Of a stretch of DNA of 64,000 nt, positions 1,360 through 43,951 are shown piece after piece. Position numbers and translations under genes: made by a program. Position 1 is the first letter of the stretch, and every line of letters starts with the position of its first letter. Below the pieces are notes generated by a model. That model did no database searches, was not told the DNA's origin, and worked only from the letters and a program-made list of their open reading frames with translations. The stretch covers positions 457-64,456 of the forward strand of contig JAIQET010000020.1 of the NCBI GenBank assembly GCA_020073645.1, in the 5' to 3' direction. This DNA comes from Terriglobia bacterium (GTDB lineage Bacteria; Acidobacteriota; Terriglobia; Terriglobales; Acidobacteriaceae).

Positions 1360-3510
1360 CTAAGCCTTGTGGCTCTGCACCAGCGCCTGAAACCGCGGAT
1401 GGGAGCGGAGTGCGGCCAGGTCGGGGTCATGCTCCATCCACTCGCGTTGTCCCCAGCCATGAGTCAGTGACTTCTCCAAGCAGTCGATGGCTCTTTCGGC
1501 TTCGCCCAACAGGGCATACACGCAAGCTACGTTGTAAAGCACCTGTGGTTCTTCCCCTTCCAGGGCCAGAGCCCGCTCGGCCCACTCCATGCTGCGTTGC
1601 TTTTCATTCAACTGGGACAGGGCATTGGCTCCGAAGTACAAGGCGCGGGAATCGCCCGGATGCAATTCCAGGTGTTTCTGGGCGGCTGCCAGCCCACGGC
1701 GATAGGCGGCTGCAGCTTCTTCCTGCCGGCCCAAACCGTGCAAGGCGCTGGCCATGAGCATGGGCGCCTGGTAATCCTCGGGATTCACGCGGCTGGCTTG
1801 TTCGAACCACTCGACCGCCTCTTGCAGGTTGCCCTGCGCATAGCAATTCCGGGCATAGAAGTAATAGGGTTCGAATAGTCGTGGCTGGAGCCGCATGGCA
1901 ATGCGGAACTCCTGCCCCGCTTCTTCATACTGCTTCTTCAAAGAAGCGGTGAGGCCGCGTGAGGCGTGGGCTTCGGCCAGGTCGGGATCGAGTTCCAAGG
2001 CCTTGCGACTGGCTTCGTCCGCTGTTTGCAAGTTGGCGGAGCTGGAGTCCCAGTAGAAGTACAGGAATGCGGAGCAATCGGCGATGCCGGCATAGGCCCG
2101 CGCGTAGGCCGGATCAATCTCGATCGCCTTGACGAACATCTGCCGGGCAAAATCGAAACCCTTACGCCGGAACTGGTGGAAGAACTGGCGGCCGCGCAAA
2201 TAATAGTCATAAGCCTGGACATCGGCGGTGGGGATCTTCTCAATGGCACGTTTTTCGGTGTCGGTCAGCACTACCTGCAAGGCCTGCGCGATGTTCTTGG
2301 CAATCTCATCCTGAATGGCAAACACGTCTTGCATCTGCCGATCGTACTTTTCCGCCCACACACAGTGACCGGTGCGTGTGTCCACCAGCTTCGCGGTGAT
2401 TCGCAGCCGGTCGGCTTCGCGGCGGATGCTGCCCTCCAGGATGTGCCGCACCTTCAATTGCTGAGCGACTTGGGAGGCCGAAAACGGCTTGCCGCGGAAG
2501 GCCAGCACGGCCGAGCGGGAGAATACGCGCAGGTCCTTGATTCGTGACAGCTCGGTGGTGATGTCTTCCGTAATTCCATCACGAAAGTATTCGTCGTCCT
2601 TCTGGCCACTCAGATTGTCGAAATAGAGCACAGCGATCGACTTGTCGGATTGCGTAGCACCACGCCGAAAATCCGCCAACAATTCGACGCAGGACTGATA
2701 GCGATGTCCCGGTTCCTTTTCCAGGCATTTCAGGATGATGTGTTCCAGTTCCGGAGAGAGTTCAGGACGCACGCGCCCCGGGGGTAGTGGAAATTTGTGC
2801 AGGATTGCGTCCGCGAGAGTTGTGCTCAGGGTGGTTTCGAATGGGCGGCGACCCGTGGCCATCTCGTACAGCACCATGCCGACCGAATAAATATCGCTGC
2901 GAGGGTCAACCGCCTCGCCGCGTAATTGCTCTGGAGCCATGTAGGCCAAGGTGCCGGAAAGCGTGTTCGTGCCGATCGCGCTTGCCGTCACAGTGGCATC
3001 TGCGGTCCGCGCGACCGAACTGGCCAGCCCGAAATCGAGGATTTTTAGACGCCCATCGGGCATCACTCGCAGGTTGCCCGGCTTCAGATCGCGGTGGACA
3101 ATGCCCAGGCCGTGCGCGGCTGCCAGCCCTTCGGCCAGTTGCGTGCCCAATCGCAGAATCTCCGGTTCCGGCAGTGGCCCAGAGGCTAATGCTTCGCTGA
3201 GGGCGACGCCAGGCACGTACTCGGTGACCAGGAAATCGGTCTGTCCCTGGGTGTCGAAGTCATGGACGGTAGCGATGCTGGGATGGTTTAGCCGGGAAAG
3301 AGCGCGTGCTTCCTGGTGGAAGCGATGGCGAGAAGCCTCGTCTGACAGTGCTCCTTCGGGAAGGAGTTTGATAGCGACCTCGCGGTCGAGGTGCTCATCG
3401 CGGGCGCGATAGACTTCGCCCATGCCACCCGCACCGATCTTTTCCAGGATGCGGTAGTGACCCAGGCGCTCGCCTACCAGCTGCCTCTCGGCAACGCCTT
3501 GCTGGTTCAC
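1360..3510 (-). CDS. Ser/Thr protein kinase fused to a TolB-N-like module and C-terminal TPR repeats
   Basis: GTG start with AAGGAG about 8 nt upstream. Hanks kinase motifs are present: GAGGMGEVY, VAIK, HRDLKPGN, DFG and APE. The C-terminal half is TPR-like. Confidence 0.9.
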   Translation of the reverse strand: MNQQGVAERQLVGERLGHYRILEKIGAGGMGEVYRARDEHLDREVAIKLLPEGALSDEASRHRFHQEARALSRLNHPSIATVHDFDTQGQTDFLVTEYVPGVALSEALASGPLPEPEILRLGTQLAEGLAAAHGLGIVHRDLKPGNLRVMPDGRLKILDFGLASSVARTADATVTASAIGTNTLSGTLAYMAPEQLRGEAVDPRSDIYSVGMVLYEMATGRRPFETTLSTTLADAILHKFPLPPGRVRPELSPELEHIILKCLEKEPGHRYQSCVELLADFRRGATQSDKSIAVLYFDNLSGQKDDEYFRDGITEDITTELSRIKDLRVFSRSAVLAFRGKPFSASQVAQQLKVRHILEGSIRREADRLRITAKLVDTRTGHCVWAEKYDRQMQDVFAIQDEIAKNIAQALQVVLTDTEKRAIEKIPTADVQAYDYYLRGRQFFHQFRRKGFDFARQMFVKAIEIDPAYARAYAGIADCSAFLYFYWDSSSANLQTADEASRKALELDPDLAEAHASRGLTASLKKQYEEAGQEFRIAMRLQPRLFEPYYFYARNCYAQGNLQEAVEWFEQASRVNPEDYQAPMLMASALHGLGRQEEAAAAYRRGLAAAQKHLELHPGDSRALYFGANALSQLNEKQRSMEWAERALALEGEEPQVLYNVACVYALLGEAERAIDCLEKSLTHGWGQREWMEHDPDLAALRSHPRFQALVQSHKA

Positions 3511-11983: not shown

Positions 11984-12017
11984 TTGCAGATTGTTGATTT
12001 TTGATTGTTGATTGCAA
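11984..12017. repeat. short-word (TTGATTG-type heptamer) tract between convergent genes
   Basis: TTGCAGATTGTTGATTTTTGATTGTTGATTGCAA. Same word family as the hairpins at 42266-42345 and 43078-43134. Confidence 0.7.
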
Positions 12018-12049: not shown

Positions 12050-13747
12050 TCAGTTCCTTTGATGGTCGTAGATCTCTCGCACTCTTTCAATCCTGTCGGC
12101 ATCTTCTGCTAGCTTGTCCTGCCGTATTCGCACAATCCTCGGAAAGCGCAGCGCGTACCCGCTCTCGTGCCGGCCGGACCGCATCATGTTGTTGAACGCC
12201 ACTTCCAGCACAATCTTCGGCTCAACGATCAGGCGGAAGCCCTGGTCTTCTACCGTGTGCTCCAGGAACCACTTGCTCATTTCCGCGATCTCGGCGTCGG
12301 TCAGCCCCGAGTAGGCCTTGCCGATGTTGACCAGGCGATCGCCATCCCAGACTGCAAACGTGTAGTCGCTGAGCACCCCGATGCGCTTGCCATGTCCGTA
12401 CTCGACCGCGGTCACGACTACATCGAGCGTGGCCAGTTCACGCTTCAGTTTCAGCCAGGACTTGCCGCGCTTGCCGGGGGTGTAGGCCGACCCGGGATCT
12501 TTGATCATCAAGCCTTCATTACCGCGGGCCTGCGCGGCTTCGAAAAGTTGATCGAGCTCTTTAGGTGATGCGGCTTGGAATACCGGCGCACGGATCACCG
12601 GCGCTGGCGCAGTTTGCTCCTCGGAGTCGAATGTCAGTCGGCCTTGTGCGCCTGTAGAACGCGCTTTCACGGGCTTCCGTGGTCCCGACAGAAGCTCATT
12701 GAGAATCTTTCCCCGCTCGCGCAGCGGACGGTCAATCAGCAGGTCGCCTCCGGCGTACAGCACATCGAACACCAGGTAGGCAACTGGCACCCGCCGGATC
12801 ATCTCGTCACTGACCTTCTTCCGGCCGAGCCGCTGCTGCAGCGCGCTGAAGGGAAGCGCTCTCCCGGTTTCGCCGGCGAGGTAACTCCATGCCACAATTT
12901 CTCCGTCGAGGATGGCGTCTTGCGGCAACCCAGCCAGCGCGTCGGGCAGCTCCGGAAAGGATTTGGTGATCTCGTCGCGGGTGCGGGAAAAAATCCGCAC
13001 TTCGCCGCCAGCAATGTGAGCCTGGGCGCGGATTCCGTCGTACTTGTCCTCGACCGACGCGTTCTCGAAATAGCTGAGCGCCTCTTCGGCGGATTCGGCT
13101 GGGCTGGCCAGCATGAAGCCCAAGGGATGGAACAGCCGCATCCGGGCCTGCGCCAACTTGCCGGCGATGGCTAGCTTCAGGGTCTCGCGGAGATCGCCCA
13201 GCAGCATGTTGGCGCGTTGCACCTCGGCCAGAGTCCCGCGGTAGGCCTTGGCGATGGCCTCTTCTACCAGGTTCTCCTTCAAGCCGATCCGCAAATCTCC
13301 GGTCATGATCTTGATGATGTACTTGGCCTCGAGCGGAGTCACTTGCGAGAGCAACTCGCGGACCAGTGCGCCTTTTGCGGCGGGGCCGCGAGCAGCCGCA
13401 ATCTCGCGGAACTTACCCTGTACGTCGAGCGGGCTTGGTTGCCTTGAGATCGAGACTTGCAGAACCTCTCCCGCGACCGCTCCAAGATCACCATGCCGCC
13501 GGTAGGCAGCGCGGAGTTCCTGCTCGGTCTTTCCGGAGAGTTCAGCAACGGTGCGCCACAGCAGCGTCCCACCCACCTGCAGCGTGGTTTCCTCCCAAAC
13601 AGGGAAGGGGCGTCCAGAGAGGAACACTACCGAGGCAGCGCCATCCTCGGGCGTGCGCGACTTGAGGTAGTCGGCAACGATGGCTGTCTTTTCCAACTTC
13701 TTCGTGGTGTTTGCGATTTGCTCGCAGGCTTCAGCTAGTTTCCGCAT
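12050..13747 (-). CDS. ATP-dependent DNA ligase (Lig1/LigB type, three-domain)
   Basis: Adenylation motif I EDKYDGIRAQ. The N-terminal DNA-binding domain and C-terminal OB fold pattern are also present. Confidence 0.9.
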   Translation of the reverse strand: MRKLAEACEQIANTTKKLEKTAIVADYLKSRTPEDGAASVVFLSGRPFPVWEETTLQVGGTLLWRTVAELSGKTEQELRAAYRRHGDLGAVAGEVLQVSISRQPSPLDVQGKFREIAAARGPAAKGALVRELLSQVTPLEAKYIIKIMTGDLRIGLKENLVEEAIAKAYRGTLAEVQRANMLLGDLRETLKLAIAGKLAQARMRLFHPLGFMLASPAESAEEALSYFENASVEDKYDGIRAQAHIAGGEVRIFSRTRDEITKSFPELPDALAGLPQDAILDGEIVAWSYLAGETGRALPFSALQQRLGRKKVSDEMIRRVPVAYLVFDVLYAGGDLLIDRPLRERGKILNELLSGPRKPVKARSTGAQGRLTFDSEEQTAPAPVIRAPVFQAASPKELDQLFEAAQARGNEGLMIKDPGSAYTPGKRGKSWLKLKRELATLDVVVTAVEYGHGKRIGVLSDYTFAVWDGDRLVNIGKAYSGLTDAEIAEMSKWFLEHTVEDQGFRLIVEPKIVLEVAFNNMMRSGRHESGYALRFPRIVRIRQDKLAEDADRIERVREIYDHQRN

Positions 13748-13948
13748 GGATCATCAGCTGTGTGCCAGCCTCGGAAGATTGCCGAGCTGTGCCCGGCCGA
13801 ACAGCCGAGGCGGCTGTCCCTACGTGTTCAGTCCCTAACTTGCCAAGATAGACACACTTACATCCCCCTCCTGCCATCCTAAATGAACCCCGACCTGTGA
13901 TAACCTTACATGTTGGTACCCTGGTCCCGGAAAGATCATCCAATCAAC

Positions 13949-14935
13949 ATGCGGCTTTTGCGAACATGGTGGCGTTTCCTCGCGGCGGTGCAGCTCTTGC
14001 CTGCATTGGAGAGCGGCGAGGAGACCTTGGTTGGCGGACAAGCGGTGCTGGAGGGCGTCATGATGCGCTCGCCGCACGCCTGGGCGATCGCCTGCCGCAA
14101 GCCGTCCGGAGAGTTGTCCACGTATAGCGAACCGCTGGAGCGGCCCTCCGACAAGCACAAATGGATGGCTTGGCCGGTGGTGCGAGGCGTCATCACCCTG
14201 GGGCACGCCATGGGGCTGGGTTTCAAGGCCCTGCGCTTTTCGGCGAATGTGGCGCTGGATGAGGTTCCGGCCGATGAAAAAGGCAAGAAGCTGGAAGTCA
14301 GTGGCTGGGTGGCCGCGGTGAACGTCATCTTTTCAGTCGGCTTCTTCATTTTTATGTACAAGTATCTTCCGCTGGTGGCGGCGACCGAGTTGAAACGGGT
14401 GAACCCGCTATTTGGCGAGCAGATCATCTTCAACCTGGTGGACGGCTTGATCCGCATTGCCCTATTCCTGCTGTTTATCTGGGGAGTGTCGCTGTGGCGT
14501 GACATTCACCGCGTGTACGAGTATCACGGGGCCGAGCACAAGACGGTATACGCTTTCGAGAACGGCGACGCGCTCGAGACCCGCGCGGTGCAGAAATACT
14601 CGACCTTCCATCCCCGCTGCGGCACCAGTTTCCTGATGACGGTGATGATCATCTCGATTTTGGTGTACATGCTGATCCCGGTAACCACGTTCTGGGCGCG
14701 GTTTGCAATTCGCATTGCGCTGCTGCCGGTGATTGCCGGAGTGTCGTACGAGATCATTCGCTTCGCAGCCAAGCACCGCGGATCGCTGTTCGCCCTGATG
14801 ACCGCTCCCGGACTGTGGCTGCAGCGCATTACCACCCAGCCTCCCTCGGACGACCAGGCGGAGTGCGCCATCGTGGCGCTGGGCCAGGCCATGGCGCTGG
14901 AGAAGCAGCGCGGCGGCGAGTTGGTGATTGCGTAG
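13949..14935 (+). CDS. DUF1385-family membrane protein (commonly encoded upstream of prfA/prmC)
   Basis: The hallmark VGGQAVLEGVMMRSP lies near the N-terminus, with HGAEHK and a TM-rich centre. The start is uncertain (13910 or 13949). Confidence 0.8.
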   Translation: MRLLRTWWRFLAAVQLLPALESGEETLVGGQAVLEGVMMRSPHAWAIACRKPSGELSTYSEPLERPSDKHKWMAWPVVRGVITLGHAMGLGFKALRFSANVALDEVPADEKGKKLEVSGWVAAVNVIFSVGFFIFMYKYLPLVAATELKRVNPLFGEQIIFNLVDGLIRIALFLLFIWGVSLWRDIHRVYEYHGAEHKTVYAFENGDALETRAVQKYSTFHPRCGTSFLMTVMIISILVYMLIPVTTFWARFAIRIALLPVIAGVSYEIIRFAAKHRGSLFALMTAPGLWLQRITTQPPSDDQAECAIVALGQAMALEKQRGGELVIA

Positions 14936-14938
14936 AAC

Positions 14939-14973
14939 CCGTCGTTGGTCGTTTGTCGTTGGTCGTTGGCCAA
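14939..14973. repeat. left arm of a 35-nt inverted repeat built from tandem heptamers (GTCGTTG x4)
   Basis: CCGTCGTTGGTCGTTTGTCGTTGGTCGTTGGCCAA matches the reverse complement of 15456-15490 at 34/35 positions. The single difference would be a G-U pair in RNA. Confidence 0.9.
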
Positions 14974-15047
14974 CGCTCCTAGCCTGGGTCATCCATCACA
15001 TACAGGTTGGCTAGTGAGACACTAAAAGTCGTGGTAGAGGTGTTCAC

Positions 15048-15401
15048 ATGCCATCATCGTTTAGGGATTTGCGGGTTTGGCAGGAAGCCATGAAACTGGC
15101 ATCAGAAATCTATCGGGCGACGGCGGGCTTTCCTAGGCACGAAGTGTACGGTTTGAGTCAACAGATGCGGCGCGCAGCGGTTTCGGTTCCCAGCAACATA
15201 GCCGAGGGGAAGGGTCATCGCTCTAATCGCGAATTCACAAACTTTTTGCTTCATGCCAGAGGCTCGCTGCTTGAACTCCAGACTCAGATGCTCATCGCAG
15301 AGGATTTAGAATACCTCTCGGAAGATCGGATGCAGAAACTAAGCGACCAAGCCGACCGCATCGGCCGCGGCCTGAACGGCCCTTATCAACTCTATTTGTG
15401 A
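15048..15401 (+). CDS. four-helix-bundle protein (23S rRNA intervening-sequence protein family)
   Basis: Family pattern FRDLRVWQEAMKLA...IYRATAGFPRHEVYGLSQQMRRAAVSVPSNIAEG..R.S.REF..FL..ARGSLLEL.TQ. GAGGTG lies 7 nt upstream of the ATG. Confidence 0.85.
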   Translation: MPSSFRDLRVWQEAMKLASEIYRATAGFPRHEVYGLSQQMRRAAVSVPSNIAEGKGHRSNREFTNFLLHARGSLLELQTQMLIAEDLEYLSEDRMQKLSDQADRIGRGLNGPYQLYL

Positions 15402-15455
15402 GAAAGCCGCTTGATCGCAGTGACCAAGGATACAGGGCGAACGGCCGGTTTAGCT

Positions 15456-15490
15456 TTGGCCAACGACCGACGACAAACGACCAACGACGG
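15456..15490. repeat. right arm of the 35-nt heptamer inverted repeat
   Basis: TTGGCCAACGACCGACGACAAACGACCAACGACGG. It ends 5 nt before the prfA ATG. Confidence 0.9.
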
Positions 15491-15495
15491 ATCTT

Positions 15496-16575
<1,080 letters not shown>

Positions 16576-16671: not shown

Positions 16672-17511
16672 GTGCTCCTCCGCGACGCTCTCACTTCGGC
16701 GATCAACCGCCTCGCCACTGCTCACGTAGGCTCACCGCGGATGAATGCGGAAGTCCTCCTCATGTTCGTGCTCGGCGCCGATCGCGCCTATCTCTATGCT
16801 CATCCCGAACGCGAGTTCACACCCGAAGAAAATGCCCGGTATGACGAGGCACTGACGCAGCGCGCCCGGGGCGTGCCGTCGCAGTACATCGTGGGACACC
16901 AGGAGTTCTGGGGAATGGACTTCATTGTGACACCCGCCGTTCTCATCCCGCGCCCCGAAACCGAGCATGTAATCGAAACGGTGTTGCCGCTGGCGCGGAG
17001 CCTGGACAAGCCGAAAGTCGTTGACGTCGGTACTGGATCAGGCTGTATCGCCATTGTCCTCGCCAACGAACTGCCCCAGGCCGAGATTTGCGCCACCGAG
17101 ATTTCTTCCGAGGCGCTCGAGATCGCCCGCGCCAATGCCGCGCGTCTCCAGTTCGAACACCGGATTCGGTTTCACCACACCGACTTGTTACAAGGATTCG
17201 ATGCCAACGCTTTCGATTTCGTCGTATCCAACCCTCCCTACGTGGGCGAATCCGAAGAAGACCAGGTGCAGCTCGAAGTACGCAAGTTTGAGCCGCGCCA
17301 TGCGGTGTTCGCGGGGCCCAGCGGCCTGGAGGTGATTGAGCGCCTGATTCCACAAGCACAGAACACGCTGAAGTCTGGCGGATGGCTGGTCGTGGAAATC
17401 AGCGGCACGATTGCAGCGGGAGTGCGACGGTTGCTCGGCGGCTGGGAGGATGTTCGCATCGCCGACGATTTACAGGGGATCCCACGCGTAGCTTCGGCAC
17501 GCAAACCTTGA
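16672..17511 (+). CDS. prmC: release-factor glutamine N5-methyltransferase PrmC/HemK
   Basis: SAM motif VVDVGTGSGCIA and catalytic NPPY (VVSNPPYV). Lies downstream of prfA. GTG start. Confidence 0.93.
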   Translation: MLLRDALTSAINRLATAHVGSPRMNAEVLLMFVLGADRAYLYAHPEREFTPEENARYDEALTQRARGVPSQYIVGHQEFWGMDFIVTPAVLIPRPETEHVIETVLPLARSLDKPKVVDVGTGSGCIAIVLANELPQAEICATEISSEALEIARANAARLQFEHRIRFHHTDLLQGFDANAFDFVVSNPPYVGESEEDQVQLEVRKFEPRHAVFAGPSGLEVIERLIPQAQNTLKSGGWLVVEISGTIAAGVRRLLGGWEDVRIADDLQGIPRVASARKP

Positions 17512-27463: not shown

Positions 27464-28774
<1,311 letters not shown>

Positions 28775-28850
28775 TTAGCAATTAGCACTTGGCAATTAGC
28801 CAAAGCTCCTCTTTGCGCCCTTTGCGGCCTGCTTAGCGTCCTTTGCGGTC
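28775..28850. repeat. tandem short-word tract (TTAGCAA-type heptamer x4, then CTTTGCGG x3) in the purL-purF spacer
   Basis: TTAGCAATTAGCACTTGGCAATTAGCCAA...CTTTGCGCC CTTTGCGGCC...CCTTTGCGGTC. It directly abuts the purF start codon. Confidence 0.7.
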
Positions 28851-38180: not shown

Positions 38181-38185
38181 AAAGC

Positions 38186-38274
38186 AGGCTCCAGGCTCTG
38201 GGCTTCAGGCCATACTGCCTGGAGAAAGCGGTAGTCGCCACCTTGAAAAGCCTAGAACCTAGAGCCTAAAGCCT
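38186..38274. repeat. imperfect inverted repeat made of heptamer words (AGGCTCN x4 ... CCTARAR x4) between the two permease genes
   Basis: The left arm 38186-38211 and the right arm 38248-38274 are about 19/26 complementary. The right arm ends at the ATG of the second permease. Confidence 0.6.
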
Positions 38275-39531
38275 ATGTTGACCGAGATCATTCGCGAAGC
38301 CTGGATTGCGCTGAAGCGCAACTACACCCGCAGCATGCTGACCATGCTAGGTATCGTGTGGGGCATCGCGACCGTTACCCTGCTGATCGCCTATGGCAGC
38401 AGCTTTCGCCGCATCCTGGTCAACGGGTTTGACGCTTTCGGAAAGAGCGTCGTCATTTGCTGGCCGCAGCAGACCAGCGAACAGCCGGGTGGACAGCGTG
38501 CCGGCAAAAAAGTGCTGCTGGAGCGGGCCGATCTGGAAATGATCAAGCAGGACGCTCCCTTGGTGAAACACGCCTGTCTGGAGACTGTTCGCCGTCCCGG
38601 TGTCAGTTATGGTGACCGCATGGTGGGGACGGCCGCCGTACGCGGCGTCTGCCCCGAGTACGGCGAAATGCGCAACGAGGTGCCTTCGGAAGGCCGCTGG
38701 CTGAGCGCGGGCGACGAACTGGAGCGGCGCCGGGTGGCATTCCTGGGCGGACGCATTCGCGAACAACTGTTCAGCGGGCGCCCGGCAGTGGGGGAAACGA
38801 TCCAGATCGGCGGGGTGCGTTTCACGGTCGTCGGGGTGATGGCGCGCAAGATCCAACTGAGCAACTATTTCAGCTCGGATGACGAATCGGTGTGGATCCC
38901 TTATTCCGCGGCTGGCGATCTCTGGAATACCCGCTACGCTGCGGTGATGGTGTTTGAGCCCATCGCACCCCAGTTTGAGAAGAAAGCCATGGCGCAGGTG
39001 CTGGCGGCGATTGCCACGCGCCAGCAATTTTCGCCCACCGACAAGAAAGCCATCCAGATGTTCGGGCGCGACGAATTCCGCCCAGTGATTGACGCCCTCA
39101 CCATCGGGCTCCAGGTGCTGCTCACGTTCATCGGCACGCTGACGCTCGGCATCGGCGGCGTAGGCGTGATGAACATCATGCTGGTTTCAGTGGATGAGCG
39201 CATCCGGGAAATCGGCCTGCGCCGCGCCCTGGGTGCGAGAAAACGACACATCAAGCTGCAGTTCCTGGCTGAAACCTTGCTCATCATGCTGCTGGGCGGA
39301 GCCATCGGCGTCTTGCTGTCCTACGCCATCGCCGCTGCGGTGGGCACGCTGCCGCTGATGGGGCCGCTGTTCGAGGACGACTCGGGCAAGGGCGACATCC
39401 ACCTGAAGATCTCGCTGATGACCGTGATGCTTTCCACCCTCGTGCTGCTGGTAGTGGGAGTGATCAGCGGGCTGGTGCCGGCGCTGCGCGCCTCCAAGCT
39501 GGATCCAGTGGAAGCGCTAAGGTACGAGTAG
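38275..39531 (+). CDS. MacB-type ABC transporter permease (paralogue of the upstream gene)
   Basis: Same architecture as the upstream gene (MLTMLGIVWGI ... REIGLRRALGA ... ALRASKLDPVEALRYE). Confidence 0.85.
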   Translation: MLTEIIREAWIALKRNYTRSMLTMLGIVWGIATVTLLIAYGSSFRRILVNGFDAFGKSVVICWPQQTSEQPGGQRAGKKVLLERADLEMIKQDAPLVKHACLETVRRPGVSYGDRMVGTAAVRGVCPEYGEMRNEVPSEGRWLSAGDELERRRVAFLGGRIREQLFSGRPAVGETIQIGGVRFTVVGVMARKIQLSNYFSSDDESVWIPYSAAGDLWNTRYAAVMVFEPIAPQFEKKAMAQVLAAIATRQQFSPTDKKAIQMFGRDEFRPVIDALTIGLQVLLTFIGTLTLGIGGVGVMNIMLVSVDERIREIGLRRALGARKRHIKLQFLAETLLIMLLGGAIGVLLSYAIAAAVGTLPLMGPLFEDDSGKGDIHLKISLMTVMLSTLVLLVVGVISGLVPALRASKLDPVEALRYE

Positions 39532-42246: not shown

Positions 42247-42265
42247 CTTCGCCTCCCGGCTCAAA

Positions 42266-42345
42266 TCAATTCTTGATTGCTGATTCTTGATTGTTGATTG
42301 AAATCTGCGACCTGGAGCTTTTCAATCAACAATCAAAAATCAACA
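42266..42345. repeat. heptamer-word hairpin (TTGATTG family), 17-bp perfect stem
   Basis: TTGATTGTTGATTGAAA (42287-42303) pairs with TTTCAATCAACAATCAA (42320-42336). Both arms extend into tandem heptamers, and the right tract overlaps the queC stop codon. Confidence 0.85.
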
Positions 42346-43014
42346 ACTCTGCACTGTCGCCGCGTACTGTATCGGATCCACCGCTCCCGCTTCGCGGAAC
42401 GCCCGCAACCGTAGTACACAACTGTCACACACGCCACAAGCGCGGTCCTCCCGGCTGTAGCATGACCACGTTAAATCGAAGGGAGCACCCAATTCAAGGC
42501 CAAGCGTCACAATCTCCGCCTTGCGCATGGCGATCAGCGGCGTGACGATTTCAATCCGCCCTTCCTTCGTGCCCGCGCGAACTACCTCGTTGAACGCCCG
42601 ATAGTAAGCCGGACGACAATCAGGATAGCCCGAACTGTCCGGTTCGACTGCCCCGATGTACACCTTCTCTGCACCCAGCACCTCGGCCCAACTCACCGCG
42701 ACGGCCAGAAAATGTGCGTTACGGAAAGGCACGTAGGTGACCGGGATGCCGTGTCCAATCGCTGCCGACCCCGGCACGGGTATGTTCGCATCGGTGAGCG
42801 CCGAGCCACCAATTGCCCCCAAACTGTCGTTACGTACCAGCAGCCGGTCGCGGATACCCAGGCGGTCGCAGATACTCAGGAACGCCCGCCGCTCGCGCGA
42901 CTCTGTCCGCTGTCCGTAGCTCACGTGCACTGCGGCTGCATCGTAGTCCCGCGCCGCCAGTGCGGCACACACACACGAGTCCATCCCGCCACTGAGCAGA
43001 ACCACCGCGCGCAT
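42340..43014 (-). CDS. queC: 7-cyano-7-deazaguanine synthase QueC
   Basis: [12 protein letters not shown]-loop and C-terminal zinc cysteines ([10 protein letters not shown]). The start is 43014 or 43029. Confidence 0.93.
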
Positions 43015-43077
43015 CTGGGCCACTCCCATTCGATTAGATGACCTTCGAGACTGAATTGCCGTCCGAGCAGGGAAATT

Positions 43078-43134
43078 GTTGATTGTTGATTTCAAAGTCC
43101 CCTAGATCCGACCGTTTTCCAATCAACAATCAAC
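43078..43134. repeat. heptamer-word hairpin (TTGATTG family), 14-15-bp stem with 29-nt loop
   Basis: GTTGATTGTTGATT pairs with AATCAACAATCAAC. It lies in the queE-queC spacer. Confidence 0.85.
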
Positions 43135-43154
43135 ACTCAAAAATCAACAATTCT

Positions 43155-43838
43155 TTAGACTCCCTTCATCGCCGGGTCCCAAATGAATTTGTGGATTTGC
43201 AGGCCCAGCCGTGCGCGGACATTGTCGGCCAGCATCCACTCCGCCAGCTCCCGGGGATCAAGCAGGCAGTGGGACGTGTCGCGCGCGCCGGTCGCGTCCT
43301 TGCTGAATGCGGGGGAGAACAACACGGCGTTGACCCGGGCCGCCAGGTTGTGGCGGGCCACAAAATCGCGCGCGAACTCGTAATCCGCGCGGTCGCTCAG
43401 CACGAACTTCACCTCATCCTGCGAGTTCAGGGTCTCGAGATTTTCCATGTCAAAGCTATCGGGCTCGCCCGAGTTGGGACACTTTACATCCACGATCTTG
43501 ACCACGCCCTTGGGCACGTGAGCCAGCGGACGTTCGCCGCTGGTTTCCAGCAGCACCGTATAGCCAGCATCCAGCAACCGCTGTGCCAGGGGAACCACTT
43601 CCCGCTCCTGCAGCATGGGCTCGCCTCCGGTAATCTCCACTAGTCCGCCACCCGGGCTTAGTTGCTCTACCTCCTCCACCACCTCTTCCAGGTCCATCCG
43701 GTGACCGCCGAAGAAGGTGTACTCGCTGTCACACCATGAGCAGCGCAGGTTGCAGCCCGTCAGCCGCACGAACACACACGGCAGCCCGGCGTGGGTGGAC
43801 TCCCCCTGGATCGACTTGTAGATCTCGGTGATCTGCAT
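43155..43838 (-). CDS. queE: 7-carboxy-7-deazaguanine synthase QueE (radical SAM)
   Basis: MQITEIYKSIQGEST...GCNLRCSWCDSEY (CxxxCxxC). Confidence 0.93.
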   Translation of the reverse strand: MQITEIYKSIQGESTHAGLPCVFVRLTGCNLRCSWCDSEYTFFGGHRMDLEEVVEEVEQLSPGGGLVEITGGEPMLQEREVVPLAQRLLDAGYTVLLETSGERPLAHVPKGVVKIVDVKCPNSGEPDSFDMENLETLNSQDEVKFVLSDRADYEFARDFVARHNLAARVNAVLFSPAFSKDATGARDTSHCLLDPRELAEWMLADNVRARLGLQIHKFIWDPAMKGV

Positions 43839-43860
43839 GGGACCGGCTTTTGACAAATTG

Positions 43861-43938
43861 GATCATTGAATCATCGGATCATTGAGTCATTGAGGAGCTC
43901 AGCGGGGAATGATTCAATGACGCAATCACTCAATGATG
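43861..43938. repeat. imperfect long hairpin of CATTGA-type words in the queD-queE spacer
   Basis: 32-nt arms at 43861-43892 and 43907-43938 are about 24/31 complementary. The loop contains GAGCTC. Confidence 0.65.
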
Positions 43939-43951
43939 CAATTCCATGACG

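Follow-up and report, generated by a model that had tools for sequence, protein, structure and literature searches.

A four-helix-bundle gene in a heptamer-armed hairpin cassette of the intervening-sequence type between the DUF1385 and prfA genes of a Terriglobales bacterium

Why should a small gene for a four-helix-bundle (4HB) protein, enclosed by two long complementary arrays of a seven-nucleotide repeat, stand in the narrow gap between a DUF1385 family gene and prfA, the gene for peptide chain release factor 1? The locus lies in a 64,000-nt stretch of a Terriglobales (Acidobacteriota) contig, which we call the window and to which all coordinates without a locus label refer. The evidence supports well the view that it is a hairpin-bounded 4HB cassette of the type known from the intervening sequences (IVSs) of 23S rRNA, here in a messenger RNA setting. 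As for its nature and working, we favour, with a probability of roughly 0.6, a hairpin cassette that bears an open reading frame (ORF), is akin to the 23S IVSs with S23p/4HB genes, has lodged in the DUF1385-prfA-prmC row and works in the manner of an RNase III substrate.

According to sequence reading and a repeat finder, the left arm of the cassette (14939-14977) begins at the fourth base past the DUF1385 stop codon (14933-14935), and the right arm (15452-15490) ends 5 nt short of the prfA ATG at 15496. The arms are 39 nt each, 95% complementary and spaced by 474 nt. Their 35-nt core (14939-14973 and 15456-15490) matches at 34 of 35 positions, and the sole difference, a T on the left against a G on the right, amounts to a U:G pair in RNA. 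Tandem Repeats Finder resolves the left arm into GTCGTTG (period 7, 4.1 copies, 14941-14969) and the right arm into CCAACGA (period 7, 4.1 copies, 15460-15488). The loop contains the 4HB gene (15048-15401, + strand, 117 amino acids), whose ATG at 15048 is preceded at a distance of 5 nt by a Shine-Dalgarno-like GAGGTG (15037-15042, + strand); in an alignment of 22 orthologous 5' loop regions, a GGAGG-like block occupies the equivalent position. The G+C content of the cassette is 0.54, compared with 0.61 for the window. The first-pass annotation had described a 35-bp stem of heptamers with one G-U position, a 4HB reading frame with its own GAGGTG, a placement between the DUF1385 stop codon and the prfA ATG, and a G+C content below that of the flanks; all of this was borne out, the repeat finder extending the arms to 39 nt.

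The same alignment revealed a conserved loop motif, GGTCAT.C.TCACATACA (14987-15005, + strand), approximately 45 nt 5' of the 4HB start, followed some 18 nt on by a TA-rich block and then by GGAGG. The motif region survives in some spacers from which the ORF has been deleted (L015, L059). It could be an internal promoter or an element of the 5' untranslated region; a promoter scan of the + strand found no sigma-70 consensus match for it.

The encoded protein has an Avd-like fold and matches PF05635 (2.6e-39, score 134.1 against a cut-off of 33.8) and TIGR02436 (1.8e-35, 121.4 against a cut-off of 24). AlphaFold2 predicts four helices (pLDDT 88.9), a bundle of the kind known from Xcc0516 and BT_0352, and the model is most similar to 2GSC (TM 0.83) and 2RLD (0.82), then to the Avd structure 4DWL, with 8UB7 also among the matches. 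2GSC is XCC0516, a crystallised Xanthomonas homologue, and is the best match of the window protein in both sequence and structure; its entry comprises five chains, and chains A-E are among the matches for 2RLD and 4DWL. The residues Arg-42, Ser-46, Asn-50 and Glu-53, invariant in our alignments, form the R-x3-S-x3-N-x2-E motif that is quoted as conserved in the four-helix-bundle family (PMC3936711). This family is large, with 23,303 clusters at 50% identity (E<=0.001). The dN/dS of intact 4HB ORFs is about 0.08, compared with 0.09 for DUF1385 and 0.05 for prfA, all rough values because dS is saturated; on this measure the 4HB protein is evidently functional and under purifying selection. A 1-nt indel near codon 111 (15375-15401) gives the window protein a slightly shorter tail, ...GLNGPYQLYL*, than the ...GLNGLINS..KAA* of its relatives.

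Could such an arrangement have arisen by chance, or by faulty assembly? The heptamer-pair pattern is found 7 times where 1.7 would be expected, a frequency that none of 100 shuffles reaches, and the inverted-repeat score in the flanks of the 4HB ORF is 33, compared with a median of 8 over 55 ORFs of the window and 18 for the next-best. A 586-nt RNA is predicted to fold at -232.3 kcal/mol (z = -5.2), with the terminal stem in both the minimum free energy and the centroid structure. Taken together, the pattern excess, the flank score and the z-score argue that the arrangement is not due to chance. Three independent metagenome contigs hold the same protein in the same context, as do many relatives, and this recurrence argues against an assembly artefact.

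The gene row around the cassette is unremarkable. DUF1385 (13910-14935, + strand, Pfam 1.7e-80) precedes it, prfA (15496-16575, + strand; PCRF 1.2e-76, RF-1 1.8e-43) follows, and prmC (16672-17511; PrmC_N/MTS) comes after prfA. An ordinary-looking gene for an ATP-dependent DNA ligase (12050-13747, - strand), with N, M and C domains according to Pfam on the matching contig, lies divergently 5' of DUF1385. The region 14500-16000 gave no Rfam or rRNA match in an Rfam search, and PADLOC defence models gave no match. A terminator scan found no intrinsic terminator-like site on the + strand of the region. We also considered a giant bidirectional terminator, with an A-run before the left arm and a T-run after the right arm, and rejected it, as just 11% of right arms have a run of T>=4 after them; the T-richness past the right arm is largely prfA's own ATGTTT.

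How is this junction occupied in related bacteria? Among 80 species-level Terriglobales loci, collected via DUF1385 (75-94% identity), 25 have a 4HB gene in the DUF1385-prfA gap, which then measures 486-590 nt; the gap of the other 55 is 69-209 nt long, bar one odd spacer of 837 nt, and gap lengths are thus bimodal. At every occupied site a (GTCGTTG)n-like array stands at the 5' end and a (CAACGAC)n-like array at the 3' end, and the heptamer switches in both arms jointly (GCTGTTC/GAACAGC in L068, GACGGTC/GACCGTC in L045 and L050). The arms of one cassette pair at a mean of -58.6 kcal/mol, compared with -48.8 kcal/mol for arms taken from different cassettes (permutation p = 5e-5). In most relatives the right arm either overlaps the prfA ATG or stops 0-10 nt short of it. 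Two irregular arrangements were seen: in L048 the right arm has grown to 12 x CTGAGAA, compared with 3 units in the left arm, and in L127 (2947-3947) the 5' end of the 4HB gene is partly duplicated in tandem.

On a neighbour-joining tree of DUF1385 and PrfA, the distribution of occupied sites takes 18 parsimony changes, compared with 19.1 for randomised labels, and the presence of the cassette therefore shows no phylogenetic inertia. Distances between the 4HB proteins correlate only modestly with those between the flanks (Mantel r = 0.32, p = 0.008). Between occupied and empty alleles about 85 nt are replaced, so that the difference is no clean insertion. Compared with its near-identical strain L003, the window (14634-15812) differs at 27 positions in the final 300 nt of DUF1385 but at just one in the 870 nt or so after them; this low-divergence stretch comprises the cassette along with 320 nt from the start of prfA, and its breakpoint falls exactly at the left arm.

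The cassette-free junctions are themselves informative. The L009 spacer keeps the end of the left arm and 25 nt of the loop, and those of L015 and L059 keep the conserved loop motif; all three are clear deletion derivatives. L010 and L016 contain ORF-less hairpins of the cassette's own heptamer, L032, L043, L047, L048 and L083 hairpins of another one, CAGTTCT, and several cassette-free sites a solo right-arm-like array before prfA. In L028 a cassette adjoins an older solo array of this kind. A palindrome of about 25 nt, GTAGAGACGYAGCTTGC...GCRTCTC, is present in one or two copies at many cassette-free junctions (L005, L012, L019, L022, L025, L030, L051, L073, L081) and seems to represent a repeat family of its own.

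Other sites in the relatives also hold cassettes, which have GTCGTTR arms and proteins of 65-72% identity. Eight loci, which form a tight clade, have one between lipA and a convergent M13 peptidase gene, where the arms fill all of the gap between the two stop codons, the left one even encoding the last residues of LipA; the nearest copies at the DUF1385-prfA site are 13% divergent. Further cassettes lie downstream of prfA in L109, L133 and L145, and L109 has a 4HB cassette on either side of prfA (1356-1682 and 3001-3330). Judged by these comparisons, the cassette is demonstrably old and its arms and ORF are inherited as one unit; copying to new intergenic sites is evidently rare, while decay to ORF-less hairpins or solo arrays, or recombinational swapping, is frequent. 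The first-pass annotation had called the element mobile or copy-pasted, and the 55 of 80 empty sites without phylogenetic pattern, together with the same-heptamer cassettes at lipA and downstream of prfA, agree with that proposal.

Does the association between 4HB genes and heptamer arrays extend beyond this order? We analyzed 4HB genes at 38-55% identity, here called distant, on PLSDB plasmids and IMG/VR contigs, as two samples and not as a full census; the viral contigs were scanned with a diverse profile, as one built from close orthologues gave a single locus. The lineages sampled were cyanobacteria, Gemmatimonadota, Planctomycetota, viral contigs and the Azospirillum 23S rRNA IVS. An inverted repeat with a score of at least 14 surrounds 66% of 41 distant 4HB genes, compared with 1.3% of shifted control windows, and in a gene-based control the inverted repeat is present at 59-65% of 4HB ORFs and 0-0.6% of other ORFs of the same loci. 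The association with inverted arrays is thus, by these controls, demonstrably specific to the 4HB family, and such arrays flank most of the distant 4HB genes sampled (59-66% overall, against 0-1.3% of controls). The pattern recurred in five of six further loci, including a Planctomycetes metagenome-assembled genome and the Chroococcidiopsis thermalis chromosome.

Across more than 200 arrays the median size is about 4 units. A period of 7 fits best in 131 of 132 arrays near close homologues and in 63 of 74 near distant ones, the remainder having mostly period 8. The units themselves vary widely: TAGGGAG, GGGTGTA and GGGAAAA in Nostoc and Calothrix, the 8-mer AGGGCAGG in Gemmatirosa, and CAGTTGC, AGTGGAG, AAGGCAG, ACGTTCA and others in viral contigs. 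Their variation is nevertheless ordered, in that pairs with less than 30% protein divergence almost always share the heptamer (at most 1 mismatch), whereas pairs beyond 45% essentially never do. The host sites are likewise varied, since 4HB genes are wedged into such operon gaps as those between the beta and alpha genes of ribonucleotide reductase, hlyD and an ABC transporter gene, cas6 and cas4, accB and XCC0516, and cmr3 and cmr2. In one of these, on a Pseudanabaena plasmid (L170, cas6-cas4), the arrays have the same orientation, AAAAGCT x16 upstream and AAAAGCC x10 downstream, with an inverted partner, AGCTTTT x3, further upstream; this layout is an exception to the simple inverted arrangement.

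The link to rRNA is most direct in Azospirillum lipoferum. Its locus L171 holds a homologous ORF and inverted GAGGACG/GATGACA arrays within a match to large-subunit rRNA, in flanking sequence that we take to be helix 45 of the E. coli 23S numbering. An ORF of this family and its arrays inside rRNA are decisive for the connection to IVSs. The Coxiella IVS has a 28-bp stem within which RNase III cuts it, and its tandem GACAGAT heptamers differ in number from strain to strain (PMC4990558). Both examples agree with the initial suggestion that the cassette and the ORF-bearing 23S IVSs are the same module.

Published data from Xanthomonas fit the same pattern. A GGGAATC x4 array is recorded between bccP (XCC0517) and XCC0516, over the start codon of the latter (supplement of PMC4692102). 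Roughly 70 convergent, that is inverted, GGGAATC pairs with a preference for four units were reported in Xanthomonas and not tied to any gene family (PMC4692102). In our sample G outnumbers C in the 5' arm of 28 of the 30 distinct distant cassettes (p about 1e-6). Because the 5' arm of an inverted repeat reads identically on both strands, this bias reflects the polarity of the element, with G-rich strands pointing inward, and not that of the ORF; by the same logic, the symmetry of an inverted repeat between strands, we rejected G-richness of the upstream arm as a marker of ORF orientation. The inward polarity agrees with the rule reported for solo Xanthomonas arrays (PMC4692102).

How might the cassette work in an mRNA? 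A read-through transcript of both arms would form a duplex of 35-39 bp, a typical substrate of the double-strand-specific RNase III. A cut there would release the cassette from the polycistronic RNA and divide the DUF1385 message from that of prfA, in parallel to the harmless removal of IVSs from ribosomal RNA. Transcripts that start within the loop would contain the CA-rich right arm alone, as an unpaired leader ahead of prfA. A cleavable stem would explain why the module is tolerated both in rRNA helices and in tight operon gaps.

Several observations weigh against this favoured reading. Cleavage of the cassette stem by RNase III is inferred by analogy with the rRNA IVSs, and should the loop motif be a promoter, the left arm would be missing from many transcripts, whose stem would never form. 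Machinery for copy-and-paste is not evident, in that neither a transposase, nor a reverse transcriptase, nor a target-site duplication was seen at the cassette. Mismatches between the arms show no excess of G:U over A:C (68 G:U and 99 A:C in close cassettes, 26 and 25 in distant ones), many of them are transversions, and L003 has two arm substitutions without compensation. In view of the missing wobble excess and the L003 changes, the pairing may stem from concerted evolution or cassette replacement and not from selection on individual bases in RNA, for which the case is weakened. Finally, the ORF is broken while the arms persist in about 6 of the 25 orthologous loci, and the protein is therefore dispensable in some lineages.

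The same mismatch data lend weight to the main rival, a mobile or recombining element at the level of DNA, for which the arrays would be termini or recombination substrates, akin to cruciforms or terminal inverted repeats, with the 4HB protein as an accessory factor that helps to maintain or spread them and the RNA hairpin as incidental. Such an element would account for the absence of G:U bias, the transversions and the uncompensated changes within a species, and equally for the sharp breakpoint between the window and L003 at the left arm, for alleles with and without the cassette that swap without simple insertion, for its occurrence at three or more sites and for the unstable copy number of the L048 arrays; the G-richness of 28 of 30 5' arms also points to a directional process. 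However, neither the cassette nor the sequence beside it has a recombinase, transposase or reverse transcriptase, the bases at the ends of the arms show no target-site duplication, and no catalytic activity is known for the 4HB family. The copies at different sites are old, with protein divergence of at least 13%, so that movement must be rare, and the rRNA version is demonstrably handled at the RNA level (PMC4990558). On balance we regard a DNA-level element as rather unlikely.

Are heptamer hairpins simply a common feature of intercistronic gaps, into which 4HB genes insert? The window has at least four other gaps with ORF-less hairpins of tandem 7- or 8-nt units, all overlooked by the first-pass annotation: CAGGCTC between two MacB/FtsX permease genes (38181-38275; RNA fold z -2.6), ATTGTTG between queC and a TPR gene (42261-42346; z -5.8), ATTGTTG between queE and queC (43075-43151; z -1.9) and ATTGAATC between queD and queE (43850-43942; z -4.0). 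Array hairpins are kept in the que gaps of the relatives L216, L218, L221 and L223, with a repeat unit that depends on the lineage and may differ at the same junction; the CATTGAAT 8-mer stands between queD and queE in the window, L216 and L218 and between queE and queC in L221, where L218 has a hairpin of TTAGCAN. This suggests that ORF-less hairpins turn over or move. A search of the que-operon gaps of these four relatives for 4HB genes found none, just hairpins with other units. Inverted GGGAATC pairs without an ORF are likewise abundant in Xanthomonas (PMC4692102). All this is what a generic hairpin of genome-wide occurrence, serving in stabilisation, processing or termination, would lead one to expect, with its loops as a mere preferred insertion target for the 4HB genes. 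Against it, the heptamer follows the phylogeny of the 4HB protein even between genomic sites, which argues that the arms move with the ORF and did not pre-exist at the target, and the ORF-less forms at the DUF1385-prfA junction include the deletion derivatives L009, L015 and L059. We consider this explanation improbable. A more host-centred alternative makes the cassette a regulator of prfA, the right arm holding its initiation region, pairing with the left arm blocking translation on read-through and the 4HB gene riding as a passenger. The position of the right arm just before or over the prfA ATG in most relatives and the solo right-arm-like arrays before prfA at several cassette-free sites would suit such a role, but two thirds of the relatives do without the cassette, no start codon is near it between the convergent lipA and M13 peptidase genes, and the module recurs in rRNA and, within other phyla, at loci unrelated to this one. 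Because of these other sites and phyla, regulation of prfA is a highly improbable primary role.

The window holds further arrays. Both hairpins that flank queC share the heptamer ATTGTTG, and queC is for this reason itself bracketed by inverted arrays (42261-42303 and 43117-43159; 43 nt, 79% complementary), its flank score being the second-highest of the 55 window ORFs. Two solo arrays have no inverted partner: GATTGTT (11989-12014) after a cation-efflux gene, and TAGCAAT/TAGCACT (28769-28800) between a purF-like (amidophosphoribosyltransferase-like) and a purL-like (FGAM-synthase-like) gene, the latter array having the TTAGCAN unit of the L218 hairpin between queE and queC.

Could PF05635 4HB proteins and tandem heptamer arrays be the two halves of one widespread system? 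Such a system is a speculative and quite unlikely extension of the IVS-type reading. A homo-oligomeric Avd-like protein would recognise the array of about 4-5 heptamers that is specific to its lineage, each subunit taking one unit; Xcc0516 and Avd have both been described as pentamers. The arrays would be laid down directionally, with their G-rich strands inward, as if repeats were added to the two 3' ends of a break. ORF-less hairpins and solo arrays, among them the cyanobacterial repeats known as STRR, the xanthomonad GGGAATC arrays and the window hairpins, would accordingly be either footprints of 4HB cassettes or their non-autonomous relatives, and the rRNA IVSs a special case that landed in rRNA.

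For decades the 23S IVSs, the S23p ORF and the heptamer repeats of both cyanobacteria and xanthomonads have been known and, to our knowledge, their origin and function are not agreed upon. The 59-66% of sampled distant 4HB genes with flanking arrays, together with one Xanthomonas table entry, point to a single module behind all three. The IVS-type cassette is accordingly not specific to rRNA, its stems consist of about four tandem heptamers, and the heptamer co-diverges with the 4HB protein. Neither a link of 4HB genes to flanking heptamer arrays nor an IVS-type cassette between protein-coding genes was found in the literature that we searched, to which subscription papers and database family notes did not belong; while the protein family, the rRNA IVSs and the heptamer repeats are each known, the regularity across phyla may be new. 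It also suggests caution before 4HB genes are taken for functional partners of the genes beside them, as many unrelated operons host them in our samples; 18 four-helix-bundle genes have been counted as cas-associated (PMC3936711).

How does the cassette compare with known systems? It is not a Rho-independent terminator, as its loop measures 474 nt and the + strand has no terminator-like site. With repetitive extragenic palindromes and their mosaic elements (REP/BIME) and miniature transposable elements with inverted repeats (MITEs) it shares a palindromic structure, an intergenic, often intercistronic position, a patchy distribution among relatives and the existence of ORF-less versions. Those elements, however, have a unique terminal inverted repeat, whereas the cassette arms are tandem 7-nt arrays with a unit that varies by locus, and the cassette differs further in its conserved non-transposase gene and in lacking a target-site duplication. 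An insertion sequence or MITE was therefore not recognised: the bases flanking the arms, TAGAAC and ATCTTA, are not duplicated, and the sole ORF is the 4HB gene.

The protein is a homologue in fold of Avd from diversity-generating retroelements (bAvd in Pfam, 5.2e-06; Avd in PHROG, 8.4e-09; structural matches to 4DWL and 8UB7), and the homologue structures contain chains A-E, as does 2GSC with five per entry. Avd acts on RNA together with a reverse transcriptase. The window protein was rejected as a retroelement component, its NF033474 score being 30.7 against a cut-off of 80 (NCBIfam). Unlike such a retroelement, the cassette has neither a reverse transcriptase nor a template or variable repeat in its vicinity, its neighbours being DNA ligase, DUF1385, prfA and prmC.

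The resemblance is closer to the heptamer repeats of cyanobacteria (STRR) and Xanthomonas (GGGAATC). These also have a 7-nt unit with about four units preferred, matched in the cassette by a period of 7 and 4.1 copies per arm; they too are intergenic, often between aligned ORFs, and their inverted pairs can form stem-loops. Their sense strand, like that of the cassette, is G-rich past stop codons and C-rich before start codons (PMC4692102). They differ in having been described as stand-alone simple-sequence repeats and discussed as G-quadruplex-forming or regulatory elements, whereas the arrays of the cassette bracket a 4HB gene and vary in heptamer with the 4HB lineage; a link to protein-coding cargo is not drawn in the searchable papers on these repeats.

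Closest of all are the 23S rRNA IVSs, namely those with S23p in Leptospira and Coxiella and that of Azospirillum lipoferum (L171). They lie in helix 25 or 45, whereas the cassette stands between protein-coding genes, with DUF1385 and prfA as flanks and no Rfam or rRNA match, and is as such no 23S rRNA insertion. In other respects the two agree. The cassette has the long-stem terminal inverted repeats and the PF05635 protein in the loop that define such IVSs, and these in turn have a stem of approximately 28-39 bp, a loop of about 400-480 nt with a gene for a PF05635 four-helix-bundle protein, tandem heptamers within the stem or next to it and a sporadic distribution among relatives. Excision by RNase III, which has been shown for the rRNA IVSs, would by analogy be the fate of the cassette as well.

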